A stretch of 35,640 nt of DNA, from positions 1 to 35,640 of IMG/VR virus record IMGVR_UViG_3300047484_000003; one strand, written 5' to 3'. Numbering within the stretch: the first letter of the stretch is position 1; the number at the start of each line of letters is the position of its first letter. The DNA comes from a virus. Lineage: Duplodnaviria; Caudoviricetes. The notes beneath the pieces were generated by a model. It saw only the letters and a list, made by a program, of their open reading frames with translations, had not been told where the DNA came from and made no database searches. Below are positions 3,820 to 19,265 of this stretch, piece after piece. A program made the position numbers and the translations under genes.

Positions 3820-4737
3820 ATGGCAGCCCCGATGCGCAGTACCGACTTTCGGAGTATTGTTGAGCCAATCCTCAACGAGTGCTTCGACGGCGTTTATGAT
3901 CAGCGTGCCGACGAGTGGAGCCGTGTGTTCCGCGAGCAGCAAGGCATTCCCCGCAACTACCACGAAGAGCCGGTCCTTTACGGTTTCGGCGCAGCACCGC
4001 AGCTTCCTGATGGCACACCAGTGACCTATCAGCAGGGCGGTGTGCTCTTCCTCAAGCGCTATGTGTACTCGGTGTATGGCTTGGCCTTCGCCTTGACCAA
4101 AGTGCTCGTGGAAGACGGCGACCACATCCGTATTGGTCAGGTGTATGCACGTCACCTTGCACAGTCCTTGATTGAAACCAAGGAAACCCTGTGCGCCAAC
4201 GTACTGAACAACGCCTTCACGGGCGGACAATATGCTGGTGGCGACGGCGTAGCACTTAACAGCGCTTCGCATCCCATCGTTAACGGTACGTTCAGCAACC
4301 TGCTGACCACCGCTGCTGTTCTCAGCCAGACCTCGCTTGAGCAAATGCTCATCCAGATCCGTCAGGCAGTGGACAACAACGGCAAGAAGATCCGCCTCGT
4401 GCCACGCCAGCTTGTCGTTGCTCCTGGCAACATCTTCCAGGCTGAGGTGCTGCTGAAGTCTGTTCTTCGTGCCGGCCAGGCAAACAACGACATCAACCCG
4501 ATCAAGTCGATTGGCTTGCTCGACGAGGGTGCCGCTGTTCTCTCGCGTCTTACCTCTGCCACCGCCTGGTGGGTTCAGACTGACGCGCCTGAAGGCATGA
4601 AGCTGATGATGCGCCGTCGTCTTGAGAAGACGATGGAAGGGGACTTTGAGACCGACACCATGCGCTACAAGGCAACTGAGCGTTATGACGTTGGCTTCAC
4701 TGACCCACGCGCAATGTATGGAACTCCTGGCGTTTGA
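3820..4737 (+). CDS. Major capsid protein (HK97-like fold inferred)
   Basis: 305 aa, strong AAGGAGG RBS, strongly biased codons; motifs DGVALNSASHP, PRQLVVAP, EGDFETDTMRYKATERY, DPRAMYG resemble Mu gpT-like head proteins. Confidence 0.85.
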   Translation: MAAPMRSTDFRSIVEPILNECFDGVYDQRADEWSRVFREQQGIPRNYHEEPVLYGFGAAPQLPDGTPVTYQQGGVLFLKRYVYSVYGLAFALTKVLVEDGDHIRIGQVYARHLAQSLIETKETLCANVLNNAFTGGQYAGGDGVALNSASHPIVNGTFSNLLTTAAVLSQTSLEQMLIQIRQAVDNNGKKIRLVPRQLVVAPGNIFQAEVLLKSVLRAGQANNDINPIKSIGLLDEGAAVLSRLTSATAWWVQTDAPEGMKLMMRRRLEKTMEGDFETDTMRYKATERYDVGFTDPRAMYGTPGV

Positions 4738-4774: not shown

Positions 4775-4806
4775 TCAAATGAGCAATCAAATGGAGATTA
4801 CCGATG
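4763..4806 (+). promoter_or_regulatory. Translation-inhibitory hairpin covering the endonuclease start codon
   Basis: CATCGGTAA (4763-4771) is the perfect reverse complement of TTACCGATG (4798-4806), which includes the ATG. TTCA (4774-4777) can pair with TGGA (4792-4795) in the RBS. Confidence 0.65.
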
Positions 4807-5475
4807 CCAGAGAAATGTCATGTTCATAACTGTACCCAATCATCAGTTGCAAAAGGCTTATGCCGAAAGCACTATATGCGGGTCCAGCGTCACGGAGATG
4901 TTGGTGAGACTAGGCCAAACGATTGGGGAAAACGTGAAAAGCACTCGGCTTATAAGTCGTGGTGTGGACTGCGTCGATACCATCGGATGGATATGCAAGA
5001 CTCTTGGAGGGAAGATTTTTGGCAATTTGTCAAAGATGTTCCTGAAAAGCCAGAAGGATCAATTGCATGGCGACCAGACCCAACAAATCCTTGGGGTAAA
5101 GACAATTTTTATTGGAAAGAACGCAGATCTTCTTCAGAAGATTACAAACAATATATGCAAGAGTGGCATCGTAAAGCGAGAGCCGCAAATCCAGAATATT
5201 ATTTGGATCAAGATTTGCGAAAAAAGTATGGCGTCACTTACGAGTGGCACCAACAAACCCTTTCTAGACAAAATAATGTCTGTGCCATTTGCAAGCAACC
5301 AGAAACCGCTGTTATTAGGGGTAAGGTGATTGCAATGCCAGTAGATCATGATCACAAGACCGGCAGAGTAAGAGGTTTGCTTTGCACAAAATGTAATCGA
5401 GGTTTAGGCTTGTTCCGTGACAATAAAGACATTCTCCAGGCTGCGATTCAATACTTGAATTCCTTCTCAACATGA
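4804..5475 (+). CDS. Free-standing homing-type endonuclease with a C-terminal endonuclease VII domain
   Basis: CAIC...VDHDHKTGRVRGLLCTKCNRGLG motif; N-terminal Cys/His finger (KGLCRKHY); visibly AT-richer than the flanks. Confidence 0.85.
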   Translation: MPEKCHVHNCTQSSVAKGLCRKHYMRVQRHGDVGETRPNDWGKREKHSAYKSWCGLRRYHRMDMQDSWREDFWQFVKDVPEKPEGSIAWRPDPTNPWGKDNFYWKERRSSSEDYKQYMQEWHRKARAANPEYYLDQDLRKKYGVTYEWHQQTLSRQNNVCAICKQPETAVIRGKVIAMPVDHDHKTGRVRGLLCTKCNRGLGLFRDNKDILQAAIQYLNSFST

Positions 5476-5485
5476 AAGGATAGTA

Positions 5486-6526
5486 ATGGCTCTGACGAAC
5501 TTCCCCAACGGGATTACAAGCTTCGGAGTTCCTGTGCTCGGAACCATCGGCGGCTTGCCGTTTACTGGCAACTACTACTTCGTAGATCCAGTGAATGGTG
5601 CCGATGGAAACGAAGGCAGTGTGGAACTTCCCCTCAAAACCCTTTATGGTGCTTTGGCCAAATGTACCGCTGGTAACAACGACGTTGTCGTTCTAATCGG
5701 CAATGGTGCAGCCAGTGGCTCTGCTCGTTTATCGACGGCGCTTGCGCAGGAAGTAAACTCGGCAGCAACTTCTGGTGTGCTGACCTGGAACAAAGATGCA
5801 ACCCACCTGATCGGCGTGTGTGCTCCCACACAGATTGCCCAGCGTGCGCGTATCGCTCCTCCCAGCGGCACCTACACGGTTACCACCTTCGGTAGCTCGA
5901 CGCAGTTTGTGAACGTCACTGCAAGCGGCTGTTACTTTGCCAACTTCTCAGTCTTCTGTGGATTCTCTACAGGCGGCGCGAGCATGGTGGCTTGGACTGA
6001 CAGCGGTTCACGCAATGCCTACTCCAACGTAGACATCTACGGCATGGCAGATGCGGCTTCTGCAGGTGGCACGGGTGCTCGCTCCATCAAGCTTTCGGGC
6101 GGTGGTGAGCGCACCTTCATCAACTGCACCTTTGGTGGCGACACGGTCCAGCGTACTGCAGCAAACTACACGCTTGAGCTTTCTGGTGGCACAACGCGCA
6201 ATATCTTCAAGGATTGCGTATTCCCATCATGGGCAAGTGCTGGTGGTGCTGGCGGCGCAGCGATTTATGCTGCTGCTGCGAGTGCGATTGACCGCTTCCA
6301 ACTGTTTGATGGCTGCTCCTTTATTAACGCTGTCCAGTCCACTGGCACGGCGATTACAGATCTGATCTCGTTGCCTGCTTCGGCTGGCGGCATGGTCGTT
6401 CTGAAAGGGTGCGTCACCGCAGGGTATACCGGCCTTGGCACGGCTAACGCTGTCGGCCAGACATACATTGATATGCCTGCTCCGAGCAACAGCGCTGGTG
6501 GCCTTGCTGTTAACCCGTCGGCCTAA
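5486..6526 (+). CDS. Virion protein with predicted right-handed beta-helix (head fibre/decoration)
   Basis: N-terminal TNFPNG anchor; YFVDPVNGADGNEG...PLKTL cap motif; repeated F-x-N/D-C-x-F strands. Confidence 0.6.
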   Translation: MALTNFPNGITSFGVPVLGTIGGLPFTGNYYFVDPVNGADGNEGSVELPLKTLYGALAKCTAGNNDVVVLIGNGAASGSARLSTALAQEVNSAATSGVLTWNKDATHLIGVCAPTQIAQRARIAPPSGTYTVTTFGSSTQFVNVTASGCYFANFSVFCGFSTGGASMVAWTDSGSRNAYSNVDIYGMADAASAGGTGARSIKLSGGGERTFINCTFGGDTVQRTAANYTLELSGGTTRNIFKDCVFPSWASAGGAGGAAIYAAAASAIDRFQLFDGCSFINAVQSTGTAITDLISLPASAGGMVVLKGCVTAGYTGLGTANAVGQTYIDMPAPSNSAGGLAVNPSA

Positions 6527-6568: not shown

Positions 6569-7570
6569 ATGGGTCAGTTTAAGCCGATGGTGAAGATGAT
6601 GACCACCGAGCCTTCAGTAGAGTTAAAGCTGAAGAAAGGTGGCATGGTCAAAACACCGAAAAAAGTAACTAAGATGATGAATGGCGGTGTCATGGGCGGC
6701 TTGGCAGCAATGCCGTCTCCTGGCTCCCGCGGTGGTATGGCACCTGCAATGGCACCACGTCGTCCTTCTATGGCAGCACGTCGTGCGGCGATGATGAATC
6801 GCCCCATGATGAAGGAAGGTGGCGAGACCAAAGCAGAGCACGCAGCCGAAATGAAGAAGATGATGGGCACCGAGGCCAAGCTTAAAAAGCATGCTTCTAT
6901 GCCTGCATCTAAGGCTCACAAGGGCCTAAAAACCGGCGGTGTGGTTATGGGCCAGGGTGGCTACAAAAAGGGCGGCGCAGTGCCCAAGAGTGGCATTCTT
7001 CCGGTAGCAGAGTCTGAGCGTGGCGCTAAGTCTTACGTCAAGACCAAGATGGATACAGCGCATGTTGATAAAGCCAAGGGTCCTACTGGCGATGTCAAGA
7101 TGGGCAAGCCTGGCGGTTACAAAACCGGCGGCGTCGTCATGGGTCAAGGCGGTTACAAGAAAGGTGGTGCCGCAAAAAAGGGCTACGCTACGGGGGGTCT
7201 TGTTGATTCAGGCAAACCCGTAGCCTATCCCAAGAAGCCAGCTTCTGCGGCTGTGTCGAATGATCGTCAATCGGGCACCTTCAAGAAAGGTGGCAAAGTC
7301 AAGTTTAACGATGGCGGTGCTGCAGGTCCTGTGAGCAATTACGAGCGTGACATGCTTAAAAAGAATGTCGCTCCCGTGAAAGATCCACAGGCAACTGCAG
7401 CCAAGGCGAGTCGAGATCTTGAGGAAGCGTTGAATCCGATTGGCATCTTTAAGGAGCTTGGCGGCAAGCTTCGTGACAAGTTGCGTGGCCAAGGTGCGGT
7501 AACCGAGACTGAGAAGTCTGTAACGGTATCGCCACCACCAGCCAAAAAGCGAGCCGGCGGCGCGTGCTAA
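6569..7570 (+). CDS. Lys/Gly/Met-rich basic protein with repeated xxGG motifs; probable internal head protein; probable -1 frameshift isoform of 212 aa
   Basis: About a dozen motifs such as LKKGG, YKKGG, YKTGG, YATGG, FKKGG; single Cys at the C-terminus; AAGGA RBS. Confidence 0.8.
   Translation: MGQFKPMVKMMTTEPSVELKLKKGGMVKTPKKVTKMMNGGVMGGLAAMPSPGSRGGMAPAMAPRRPSMAARRAAMMNRPMMKEGGETKAEHAAEMKKMMGTEAKLKKHASMPASKAHKGLKTGGVVMGQGGYKKGGAVPKSGILPVAESERGAKSYVKTKMDTAHVDKAKGPTGDVKMGKPGGYKTGGVVMGQGGYKKGGAAKKGYATGGLVDSGKPVAYPKKPASAAVSNDRQSGTFKKGGKVKFNDGGAAGPVSNYERDMLKKNVAPVKDPQATAAKASRDLEEALNPIGIFKELGGKLRDKLRGQGAVTETEKSVTVSPPPAKKRAGGAC
7174..7224 (+). promoter_or_regulatory. Candidate programmed -1 ribosomal frameshift signal
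   Basis: In-frame A AAA AAG (7174-7180), 6-nt spacer, 8-bp stem GCTACGGG (7187-7194)/CCCGTAGC (7217-7224). Confidence 0.7.
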
Positions 7571-7572
7571 AT

Positions 7573-7599
7573 GCGGGGGCTTCGGCCCCTGCTTTACTT
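7573..7599 (+). terminator. Rho-independent terminator (probably partial)
   Basis: GCGGGGGC-TTCG-GCCCCTGC followed by TTTACTT, 2 nt after the stop codon. Confidence 0.7.
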
Positions 7600-13551: not shown

Positions 13552-13812
13552 ATGTCAGACGTTATTGAAGTACCCACAAAAGAAGAGCTTGACCGTCACT
13601 TTTCAGCGTTGATTGATTCGTGTGGTTTGATTGAAGGTTACGTTGCTGGAGAATATGGCAATAGAACCATCGTGAAAAATGACGCAAATAAGCAAACGGT
13701 AGAGCGCAACACAGGCCACCTGAAGTACATGCGTGATAAGCCGTGGTGGACAGGTTATGACATGACCCGTGTTAACGCAGCAATCACGGCAGGCGATGCT
13801 TACCTCGCCTAA
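13552..13812 (+). CDS. Small fibre-associated hypothetical protein
   Basis: AAGGA RBS; immediately follows the fibre gene. Confidence 0.7.
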   Translation: MSDVIEVPTKEELDRHFSALIDSCGLIEGYVAGEYGNRTIVKNDANKQTVERNTGHLKYMRDKPWWTGYDMTRVNAAITAGDAYLA

Positions 13813-14686
13813 AGGTGGCTCGGAGATTCTTCTTGAAGAACTCCAAAAGCGGGTGGACACAAGCCCTGTCAACATCATACTTTCAACGTGTGATGCAAGG
13901 TTGCTCCACCCTGCTAAACCCAACATTTTGTGGGAACACCTTAGTTACGATCAGGCAGGCGTTACAGGCTTGGCAGATGCTGACTTTGTGTCGCGGTTGG
14001 ACGCCATCGTGTTCGTATCGCATTGGCAGCACGAGCAGTTTAGAAAGCGTGTAAACCTACCCGGCGATAAGTGCTTTGTAATTCAAAACTGCATTAGTCC
14101 TGCGCCAGATCATGACAAGCCTCAAGAAGTTGGATTGATTTATACGTCCATGCCCAATCGCGGTTTAAGCTTGTTAGCTCAGGCTTATCCGTTGATGAGG
14201 AACAAGGTGCCGTTGACGGTCATTTCTGGCACGAAGATCTATGGCAAGAAGTTTCATGAAACGACAGGGCATAAATTCAATCCCTTGTACCGACAACTGA
14301 AAGCCCTTGGTGCAGCGCACTACAATTATTTGCCTAATGAAGAAGTACGCGAGCAACTGACAAAGCATCACATTCTTGCTTACCCAAGCGTGTTTGAAGA
14401 AACGTCTTGTCTTTCTGCTATTGAAGCATTGTCTTACGGATTAAAAGTAGTAACGACGAACTTTGGTGCGTTGCCAGAGACTTGTGGCGTATGGGCAGAT
14501 TATGTGCCGTTAGGCGAGCCGTCAGAGTTTGTTAAGCGTTATGCTCAGGCGTTGGATGACGCAGTAGATGCATGGCAACCTAATACAGATCAGGTTCAGC
14601 ACTACCGAAAGTATTGGACTTGGGACGCAAGACCGCAATGGGAGAGCCTCATTGGACGCTATCGGACGCAGACTCTGGCAGCTTAA
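13796..14686 (+). CDS. Glycosyltransferase, GT-B fold (GT4-like)
   Basis: GGSE N-terminal loop, FVSHWQ, YTSMPNRGL, YPSVFEETSCLSAIEA (E-x7-E), TTNFGALPE. ATG at 13796 preferred. Confidence 0.85.
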   Translation: MLTSPKGGSEILLEELQKRVDTSPVNIILSTCDARLLHPAKPNILWEHLSYDQAGVTGLADADFVSRLDAIVFVSHWQHEQFRKRVNLPGDKCFVIQNCISPAPDHDKPQEVGLIYTSMPNRGLSLLAQAYPLMRNKVPLTVISGTKIYGKKFHETTGHKFNPLYRQLKALGAAHYNYLPNEEVREQLTKHHILAYPSVFEETSCLSAIEALSYGLKVVTTNFGALPETCGVWADYVPLGEPSEFVKRYAQALDDAVDAWQPNTDQVQHYRKYWTWDARPQWESLIGRYRTQTLAA

Positions 14687-15266
14687 AAGCACGGGGGTAG
14701 TGCTAGAGCAATGCCTTGACATCGGCGCATACCGAGGTCAGTTTACGGCAGTGGTCAAAGCGTTGTACCCGGCATGTAAGGTGCAACAGTTTGAGGCAGA
14801 TAAAAGGCAGCGGTCTTACATTCCGTTTGCAAAGTTTGTCTTGTTAGGTGATGCAGATCGTGAGGCTATTTTCTATACCTTGCCAGAGCATACTTGCACG
14901 ACAGGCTCATCAGTGTTTATAGAGAACACCCTCCACTATGCCAAGCCAATTCAACTGACGTTGCCCATGAAGACGTTGGATGCTGTAGCAGACTATTCGG
15001 GTGACTGGTCTAAGGGCTTGGTTAAGATGGACACGCAAGGTTCAGAGTTGATGATTCTGAAAGGCGCGACAAAGTTGCTAGCCAAACGCCCTCGCTTCTT
15101 TTTGATTGAATGTTCTGTACAGCCTTATAACGTAGGTGCGCCGTTGATCAATGAAGTGATCAGTGCTATGAAGGACTACGGCTACACCATCAAAGACTTT
15201 TGGGATATGAGTTACGACCAGCAAGGCAGTTTGCTGCAAACCGACATTTTATTTGAGGCCACATGA
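14652..15266 (+). CDS. FkbM-family SAM-dependent methyltransferase
   Basis: LDIGAYRG, FEAD, KTLD, VKMDTQGSELMILKGA, QTDILF. Probable TTG start at 14652 after GGAGAG. Confidence 0.85.
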   Translation: MDAIGRRLWQLKSTGVVLEQCLDIGAYRGQFTAVVKALYPACKVQQFEADKRQRSYIPFAKFVLLGDADREAIFYTLPEHTCTTGSSVFIENTLHYAKPIQLTLPMKTLDAVADYSGDWSKGLVKMDTQGSELMILKGATKLLAKRPRFFLIECSVQPYNVGAPLINEVISAMKDYGYTIKDFWDMSYDQQGSLLQTDILFEAT

Positions 15267-15922
15267 AAGTTTTAATTGCCACTCCTGCCTTAGACGGGCG
15301 ACTAGATGTTTGGTATGTGAACTCCTTGGTCAATAGCGTCCGAGTAGCGCAATCTAATGATGTGTTTTTGCACCCTGTGTTTTTATCGTATGACGCGCTG
15401 ATTCAGCGAGCAAGAAATGATTTGTTTGGGCTAGCGGTAGAAGAGGACTACGACCAAGTCATTTGGATTGACTCTGATCTTGAGTGGAATCCCATGTGGA
15501 TCATGGAATTGTTGTCACGGCCTGAAGATGTTGTTGGTGGGACATACCGCAAGAAGACAGACGAGTATGAAAAGTATGTGGTCAGGACGGACAGCTTGCA
15601 AGCAGCTTCTTCAGGATTGATAAAGGTTCAAGGTTTAGGCATGGGATTTGTGAAGATGAGCCGCAAAGCCGTGCTTGATCTGTGGGAGAACAGTGAAGAG
15701 TACGAGAATGAAAACAAAGTACGCCGGATGATTTGCAATATTGCTATTGTGGATGGGCAATTGCATTCAGAGGACACGGTAGTGTTTTCAAAGCTTATGG
15801 CACTTGGCTACGATATTTGGTTAGATCCCAAGATGACATGCGCTCATGTTGGGACAAAAAAATTTCAAGGCAACTTTGATCGTTTTAGGCAATCGCTAAC
15901 CAAAAAGGTGTCAAATGGCTGA
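15263..15922 (+). CDS. Glycosyltransferase-like protein, GT-A fold
   Basis: VLIATP, RARN, WIDSD (DxD), GMGF, SED, IWLDP...HVG. Confidence 0.75.
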   Translation: MKVLIATPALDGRLDVWYVNSLVNSVRVAQSNDVFLHPVFLSYDALIQRARNDLFGLAVEEDYDQVIWIDSDLEWNPMWIMELLSRPEDVVGGTYRKKTDEYEKYVVRTDSLQAASSGLIKVQGLGMGFVKMSRKAVLDLWENSEEYENENKVRRMICNIAIVDGQLHSEDTVVFSKLMALGYDIWLDPKMTCAHVGTKKFQGNFDRFRQSLTKKVSNG

Positions 15923-18536: not shown

Positions 18537-19265
18537 ATGAGCATTTGGTCGGTTTATATCATCACGAACAAACTAAATGCCAAACAATATGTAGGCATTT
18601 CCAAAAACATCAAACAGCGTTGGAATGCGCATTTGTCTGCTAATGGCAGTGCTCCAGCACTCCATGCTGCAATTAAAAAGTATGGGAAAGACAATTTTGT
18701 TTTTTCTCAAATCTGTGACGCATTTGATTTTGAAGCGGCTTGCGATATAGAGCGCCTACTTATTAAGCAGCACAATACTAAGCATCCCAACGGATACAAT
18801 CTGACGGATGGCGGCGAGGGGGTTGTTGGGCATCCCATGACAGATGAGGGCAAGGAAATACGAAGAAACGCAAGTCTTGCGTTTTTAAGTAATCTTTCAG
18901 ATGAAGAGCGTGCGGCAAAGTATGGAACCAAAGGCCGCAAATATAGTCTAGAGCAAATTGAAAAGATTCGCGCTTCAAATAAGGGAAAAAATCTTGGCAA
19001 GAAGGCTTCTCAAGAGGTGCGAGCAAAGCTATCTGCTATCCATAAGGCCCGCCCGCGCAAGCCATTGAGCGAAGAAACAAAGGAAAAAATTAGGCAATCG
19101 TTGCTTGGCCGTAAAATGCCCGAAGCAGAGAAGCCTAAGCATGCAAGTTTTTTAGGCCGCAAGCATACAGAAGAGACTAAAGCAAAGATCCGCGCCTCAA
19201 ATATTGCCACTAAGGCGCTCATGAAGGCTAAGAAACTTGCGGAAGAGGGGGTTGAAAATGCCTAG
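18537..19265 (+). CDS. Free-standing GIY-YIG homing endonuclease with NUMOD3 repeats
   Basis: SVYIITN...QYVGIS...QRW, conserved E and GYNLTDGG; several SEETKEKIR / HTEETKAKIR repeats; AT-richer than the flanks. Confidence 0.9.
   Translation: MSIWSVYIITNKLNAKQYVGISKNIKQRWNAHLSANGSAPALHAAIKKYGKDNFVFSQICDAFDFEAACDIERLLIKQHNTKHPNGYNLTDGGEGVVGHPMTDEGKEIRRNASLAFLSNLSDEERAAKYGTKGRKYSLEQIEKIRASNKGKNLGKKASQEVRAKLSAIHKARPRKPLSEETKEKIRQSLLGRKMPEAEKPKHASFLGRKHTEETKAKIRASNIATKALMKAKKLAEEGVENA

Follow-up and report, generated by a model that had tools for sequence, protein, structure and literature searches.

The question raised by this locus is whether one phage gene is translated into two proteins, and what the shorter of the two could be for. 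The gene lies at positions 6569–7570 (plus strand) of the window, i.e. the whole analysed stretch of 35,640 nucleotides, and its 0 frame encodes a product of 333 amino acids. A first-pass annotation had proposed that this gene contains a dnaX-type −1 frameshift which is programmed and truncates the product, a proposal favoured by all of the comparative tests on the heptamer, the stem, and the Cys of the −1 frame. Comparison of the gene sequences provides very strong evidence that a −1 frameshift is programmed here, and the conserved heptamer and hairpin very probably yield a 212-residue protein ending in Cys beside the 333-residue one, both predicted to be floppy, basic head cargo or scaffold. 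Because the 0 frame is intact, such a frameshift is invisible to gene callers.

The gene, its predicted products, and its genome setting

The slippery heptamer A_AAA_AAG lies at 7174–7180 (plus strand), in phase within the codons GCA AAA AAG at 7172–7180, and conforms to the pattern X_XXY_YYZ. After a 6-nt spacer, the 5′ arm GCTACGGG (7187–7194, plus strand) pairs with the 3′ arm CCCGTAGC (7217–7224, plus strand) across a loop of 22 nt, as assigned by folding and comparative pairing. For the 81-nt region, the folding energy is −32.3 kcal/mol (z −3.1), and none of 200 shuffles is equally stable. Translation of the −1 frame gives the tail KKGLRYGGSC followed by a stop (7174–7206, plus strand), predicting a short product of 212 amino acids; the tail Cys codon (7201–7203) and the stop TGA (7204–7206) are both within the loop, outside the paired arms. 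The long form ends in KKRAGGAC and a stop (7544–7570, plus strand). The phased heptamer, the 8-bp stem 6 nt past it, the −1 reading to the TGA with its 212 amino acids, and the only Cys of the 333-residue product at its very end had all been claimed in the first-pass annotation, and they are found as described.

An assembly artefact in the A-run was considered and rejected, because no indel is listed for contigs of four public runs and the site recurs in 176 genes. Two metatranscriptome runs contain contigs of relatives that span the site, a kind of evidence that cannot show transcription or slippage. A Shine–Dalgarno-like purine stretch (7160–7169, plus strand), which ends 4 nt before the heptamer, is a candidate stimulator only.

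The 333-residue protein has a net charge of +39 and a pI of 10.2, is rich in Gly, Lys, Ala, Met, and Pro, and is of low complexity and predicted to be disordered; an AlphaFold2 model of it has a mean pLDDT of 54.5 and a pTM of 0.19. Two conserved modules stand out in the homologue alignment. The N-terminal one (residues 1–25; 6569–6643, plus strand) is common to both isoforms and nearly invariant, which is partly so by construction because many homologues were gathered using that block. The second (residues 206–244; 7184–7300, plus strand), with invariant columns from A207 to G242, belongs to the long isoform only. Homology between the two modules was considered and rejected, since the KKGG end alone aligns, with a probability of 15%. 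As the slip site is just before the second module, the short form would retain the N-terminal module as well as the basic GG repeats, and be without the second module and the C-terminal third.

The family comprises 533 clusters at 50% identity. Searches against Pfam (E 0.01), PHROG, PDB (E 1), and Rfam gave no match, the ESM Atlas returned only viral clusters without names, and sequence searches detected no homologue in cultured phages or in solved structures. The N-terminal block is matched in GenBank only by MW202545, an uncultured genome in which the frameshift signal is present too. A match in Arthrobacter phage Lakshmi was discarded as chance, being on the strand opposite to the annotated gene there.

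The viral record of 35.6 kb encodes GroES, a capsid protein, SU10-type adaptors, a lysozyme, and an SLT protein, according to Pfam and PHROG searches. The major capsid protein (3820–4737, plus strand; Pfam PF25209) is 76% identical to those of the Caulobacter phages RW, RLK, KcrB, and GB2A, and approximately 41% identical to those of HTVC023P and CRP-901. The recoded gene sits in the head-to-adaptor block, between the capsid and SU10-type adaptor genes. It is directly followed by a terminator-like hairpin (7573–7592, plus strand), and the start of the next gene is 20 nt further on; a loose rule, applied without a control, detects a hairpin at most 45 nt past the stop in 63 of 64 representatives. 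The gene is absent from phage RW, in which 17 kb around the capsid was checked and tblastn gave no match; as the capsids are 76% identical, the protein seems to be dispensable for building such a head. Metagenomes that cover at least half of the stretch are from lakes and freshwater, and 9 of 13 bin contigs carrying the gene are labelled Betaproteobacteria, a weak hint of a betaproteobacterial host.

Some neighbouring genes merit mention in their own right. An endonuclease VII-type gene (4804–5475) lies immediately 3′ of the capsid gene, a position at which RW carries a different nuclease-like gene, and a GIY-YIG-like gene, judged by eye, is found in the tail block (18537–19265). Two glycosyltransferase-like genes and an FkbM methyltransferase gene are located behind the tail fibre genes (13769–15922). 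Just upstream of the recoded gene, 5486–6526 encodes a 346-residue protein without a family match, with eight Cys, of which four are invariant among the matched homologues; it is a possible partner of the cysteine of the recoded product.

Conservation of the heptamer, the stem, and the shifted cysteine

The loci fetched in total provided 189 distinct complete genes, 49 open readings being left out. An in-phase heptamer is present in 176 of them and four are inverted; of the rest, seven are without the second module by the search rule and two without the site, and three of these nine genes do contain the heptamer on other checks. A sample drawn by the N-terminal DNA pattern alone consisted of 119 loci and, with 43 incomplete ones excluded, 74 distinct complete genes, 71 of which carry an in-phase A_AAA_AAR. 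A protein motif located the site in 58 of 64 representatives taken at 70% identity, and every one of these 58 has a heptamer there, compared with 12 of the 519 Lys-Lys pairs elsewhere in these genes and with 4.4 expected from synonymous re-draws. The conservation that the first-pass annotation had proposed to check in homologues is thus evident both in the representatives and in the complete genes.

In a lineage with a 274-residue product, the first Lys is replaced by Gly, yet a perfect heptamer, G_GGA_AAG, is kept. According to the accessible part of PMC5009743, G_GGA_AAG and A_AAA_AAG are highly shift-prone in E. coli and A_AAA_AAA is much less so; this weaker form accounts for 62 of 113 clusters at 80% identity. 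A second in-phase A_AAA_AAG within one gene, also leading to a KKVC-stop, was observed in L093, L127, and L160, and likewise in L247, L250, L271, and L291 of the sister subfamily described below; three isoforms are therefore possible in such genes. In L160, the Cys is missing from the first tail and present in the second.

The stem can be followed through the family as well. At the 46 of 58 sites with a short loop, 84.8% of cells pair, vs 34–53% when slid. RNAalifold did not recover the stem on these 46 sequences, and it did so on the 39 left after removal of seven with a stem offset by one base. The pair formed by the four-fold wobble bases of an Ala and a Val codon is Watson-Crick in 39 of 39 (UA 15, GC 15, CG 9). 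For counts of change, a quick tree was used with 56 representatives at 80% identity, of which 55 were scored. On this tree (55 rows), 16 changes are counted for the 5′ base, 16 for the 3′ base, and 16 for the pair, indicating that the two bases always move together, and the compensatory stem changes anticipated by the earlier annotation are borne out.

The spacer is 5–6 nt in 43 of 58 sites, and in genes one codon shorter, in which the stem is offset by one base, it is still 4–5 nt. Six genes (L081, L093, L097, L104, L111, and L160) keep the stem over a loop of 53–58 nt, with the 3′ arm now at another Pro-Val codon pair; the region L081:8943-9050 folds at z −3.6. Compared with synonymous re-draws, the stability of the stem is moderate, with a mean z of −1.6 and 21 of 58 sites below −2. 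A Shine–Dalgarno stimulator at the dnaX distance is not supported, as pairing at least 8 nt from the site shows no excess (observed −5.08 vs null −5.07 kcal/mol). Closer in, Shine–Dalgarno-like pairing is in modest excess (47/58).

Cys is the last residue of the −1 tail in 48 of 58 representatives, vs 4.7 expected from synonymous re-draws, and is found anywhere in the tail in 54, vs 9.1 expected. Across 113 clusters at 80% identity, the tail ends in Cys in 88, has it inside in 16, and is without it in nine, two of which are also without Cys at the end of the long form; a tail Cys is thus present in 104 of 113 clusters. The GG-x-C ending itself was counted by hand in only 62 of 113, the other endings including KKVC (17 clusters), KKSC, KKAC, KKIC, and KKSVC. 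In 95 of 113 clusters, one of the three final residues of the long form is Cys, and 18 clusters have no end Cys there, the division being 59 with and 54 without for distant representatives (of 113), and the spacing from GG to Cys is one, two, or three residues about equally. With the long form often lacking an end Cys and with this varied spacing, the two ends need not mirror each other. The mirrored GG-x-C ends claimed in the first-pass annotation therefore hold for the protein of the window and not across the family; likewise, its suggested −1 GGxC-stop is conserved as to the Cys and not as to GG-x-C. Judged by these alignments, what is conserved is a Cys in the terminal or a nearby position, and the short form shows this trait more consistently.

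Six of nine tails that have lost the end Cys have one at tail position 5 instead, vs 0 of 47 otherwise, a shift that amounts to only four independent pairs (p 0.25). Of the 84 internal Cys in the family proteins P0245–P0393, 36 have a GG motif on either side and so resemble a C-terminal unit followed by the next repeat; such GG-flanked Cys could mark processing or linkage sites.

A few genes have the arrangement inverted. In L113, L312, and L313 and in L310 and L311, frame 0 stops at KKC, the heptamer and stem are kept, and the second module and a Cys-ended C-terminus are encoded only in the −1 frame, so that the long form of those genes needs the slip. These two groups, five assemblies in all, are 60% identical to each other, each being closest to a non-inverted gene, and a single origin of the inversion was not rejected (AU p 0.47). 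A sister subfamily was represented by 58 distinct genes and 40 representatives. Its heptamer is found in 13 of 17 KK[FYC]A[DEN]G motifs, all 13 leading to a KKVC-stop, and at 13 of 348 other Lys-Lys pairs. In three of the 40 representatives, the reading frame ends at KKC and a conserved −1 extension of 61–62 residues follows, and neither type of site is present in 28. The genes L225, L228, L236, and L240 carry the 61–62-residue extension after the KKC-stop; its end is conserved and its indels are in frame. The close relatives L226 and L229 of these genes have neither site nor extension. L144 and L159 are short single forms ending in Cys.

Proposed mechanism and competing readings

Tandem tRNA slippage at X_XXY_YYZ heptamers, stimulated by a 3′ stem, is an established process. 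The heptamer, the stem 5–6 nt on, and the short −1 tail with its Cys are all under selection at synonymous positions. In the proposed mechanism, as in E. coli dnaX, two tRNAs would re-pair at the heptamer with the ribosome held up by the stem. We predict with high confidence that tandem slippage happens at this site. The two isoforms would then act as a disordered repeat scaffold in two lengths, like CsoS2A and CsoS2B of the alpha-carboxysome, and the slip rate would set the ratio of the repeat region to the anchor module. The Cys might serve as a disulfide handle that joins chains once the particle reaches oxidising water.

A structural purpose of the conserved Cys is likely, as a prediction. 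Its use as a disulfide handle linking chains is a tentative proposal, for which metal binding and enzymatic conjugation are alternatives. In the capsid protein, Cys21 (3880–3882 in the window) occurs in 61 of 66 capsid sequences, and the four cultured phages that were checked are without it; it was rejected as a general disulfide partner, being absent from the sister-subfamily capsid that was read. In a single case (L213:4652-5563), position 21 of the capsid is Ser and the long form is likewise without an end Cys.

The competing reading with the largest share of probability, although well short of an even chance, is that two functional isoforms act in the infected cell, outside the virion. It keeps the signal, slippage, and isoform steps and replaces the scaffold and disulfide steps only. 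The very basic product could bind DNA or ribosomes, form condensates, or take part in metal or redox chemistry via its Cys; the lack of homologues in cultured phages and solved structures, the absence of the gene from RW, and the terminator-like hairpin after the gene are all consistent with such roles. The position between capsid and adaptor genes, however, is retained in the window, L081, and L224, and the large late proteins of the window contain GG motifs as well, which counts against this reading.

A second reading, that the slip is real and merely limits the dose of the full-length protein, would make the short product waste and its Cys a by-product of frame 0 and the stem. The tails are always short (4–11 residues), as would be expected by chance in 38.8 of 58; nine of 113 clusters have no tail Cys, and the GG of the −1 frame stems from a G-run that also forms the stem. 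Against this, both wobble bases that the Cys and stop codons in the loop need are T in 50 of 56 cases each. The Val codon of the loop is GTT in 50 of 56, vs 254 of 887 Val codons elsewhere, a preference that matches the wobble base required by the −1 Cys-stop. In addition, the 113 clusters contain 54 different tail sequences, most with Cys, which arise from differing frame-0 contexts; Cys is restricted to the short form in 16 clusters, and what the inverted genes make by default is the short form with its Cys end. A purely dose-limiting slip is accordingly improbable.

It is still less probable that both products come from slippage of RNA polymerase on the A-run, rather than from ribosomal frameshifting. 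Seven A's are present at 90 of 176 sites, which would suit a slipping polymerase, but the runs are limited to 6–7 A's, whereas efficient slippage in vivo was shown with nine, as far as the available part of PMC5009743 goes. Transcriptional slippage of the Thermus dnaX type needs approximately nine A or T, and G_GGA_AAG has no such run while still allowing the tRNAs to re-pair; the conserved codon phase and the 5–6 nt spacer also speak for the ribosome. Finally, the reading without any recoding, in which the hairpin serves pausing, an RNase site, or protein binding and the heptamer reflects a codon habit, can account for the covariation by the hairpin alone and is nevertheless extremely improbable, because the heptamer is rare at other Lys-Lys pairs (12/519), the inverted genes cannot make the invariant second module unless a slip occurs, and nothing would explain why the −1 Cys-stop is retained.

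Relation to known systems and significance

The predicted truncating frameshift has close counterparts in bacteria. E. coli dnaX (tau/gamma) and the window gene share A_AAA_AAG, a 3′ stem-loop, and a truncating shift leaving a short form without C-terminal domains. The −1 frame of dnaX adds one residue, unlike that of the phage family, which adds a tail of 2–9 residues with a selected Cys. The proteins are unrelated, and an upstream Shine–Dalgarno stimulator of the dnaX type is not supported in the phage family; in the part of PMC5009743 that is accessible, this stimulator is placed 9–14 nt upstream in dnaX, occurs in about half of the IS elements, and is not universal in the class. The same part of that source describes some bacteria with a reversed dnaX arrangement, which the inverted phage genes resemble.

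The nearest functional parallel might be CsoS2. According to the accessible parts of PMC5009743 and 10.1101/2023.07.07.548173, a −1 frameshift in CsoS2 gives a short form of 570 of 869 residues without the C-terminal module, the isoform ratio sets the size of the carboxysome particle, and the protein binds Rubisco and the shell, with its Cys pairs located in the repeats. CsoS2 and the phage family have in common a disordered repeat protein and a frameshift-truncated isoform (both predicted for the phage), a similar ratio of short to long form (a median of 0.65 in the phage family), and, as far as those parts of the sources extend, a patchy occurrence of the shift and no Shine–Dalgarno stimulator. 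Sequence homology to CsoS2 was not found for the phage protein (Pfam E 0.01, PDB E 1), and a selected Cys in the CsoS2A tail is not mentioned in the accessible text, whereas the tail of the phage family has one. By this analogy, the isoform pair may somewhat more readily be taken to work like CsoS2A and CsoS2B than not.

Among phages, the frameshifts of lambda, T7/T3, and A2 extend the protein at the ORF's end (PMC5009743, PMC10885494, in their accessible parts). Like the G/GT and capsid-extension frameshifts, the one proposed here is a heptamer-driven −1 shift in a late gene that gives two products; the phage family, however, mostly truncates mid-gene, and a lengthening layout of the lambda, T7, and A2 type is confined to a few relatives. 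Identification of the gene as a G/GT tail assembly chaperone was rejected, as the gene is between the capsid and adaptors and its shift lies mid-ORF, whereas such chaperones are encoded by a pair of genes located between those for the major tail protein and the tape measure, with the shift where the first ORF ends. A C-terminal extension frameshift of the capsid, as in T7/T3 and A2, was also rejected, since 3820–4737 is without an in-phase heptamer.

In copA of E. coli, a truncating −1 shift yields a small separate product (PMC5009743, accessible part). This shift is, like that of the phage family, truncating and of bacterial type, and the copA product is a copper chaperone. Its metal site is encoded in frame 0, outside the shifted tail. 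The internal proteins of T4 and the cargo of encapsulins are basic or disordered, carry short targeting motifs, and are packaged in a shell. We know of no frameshift in either, and homology of the phage family to T4 internal proteins or encapsulin cargo peptides was not found.

A search mainly of openly accessible main texts returned no published description of the gene family or the selected Cys. The accessible parts of PMC10885494, 10.1101/2025.10.02.679949, and PMC11053796 do not mention the family, and that of PMC11053796 contains the word frameshift 0 times. The mechanism itself, a truncating −1 shift as in dnaX and CsoS2, is of a known kind, and on these searches the novelty lies in the gene family and its selected Cys.

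Truncation of a disordered late protein mid-gene contrasts with the phage frameshifts that extend tail chaperones or capsids. Here the shifted frame is under selection for one residue, and the inversions, the compensated heptamer, and the relocated Cys offer natural controls. The cassette of 60 nt is ready for a reporter and comes with a series of naturally occurring variants in heptamer and stem; the diagnostic C-terminal peptide and the single Cys provide a handle on the protein family. It is a speculative and rather doubtful idea that, with Cys placed at two, and sometimes three, chain lengths, the slip rate sets a covalent internal mesh or loading by GG/Cys conjugation. If this were true, mesh or conjugation loading would tune head filling, stability, or DNA ejection, and such tuning would operate in one of the most abundant groups of freshwater phages.
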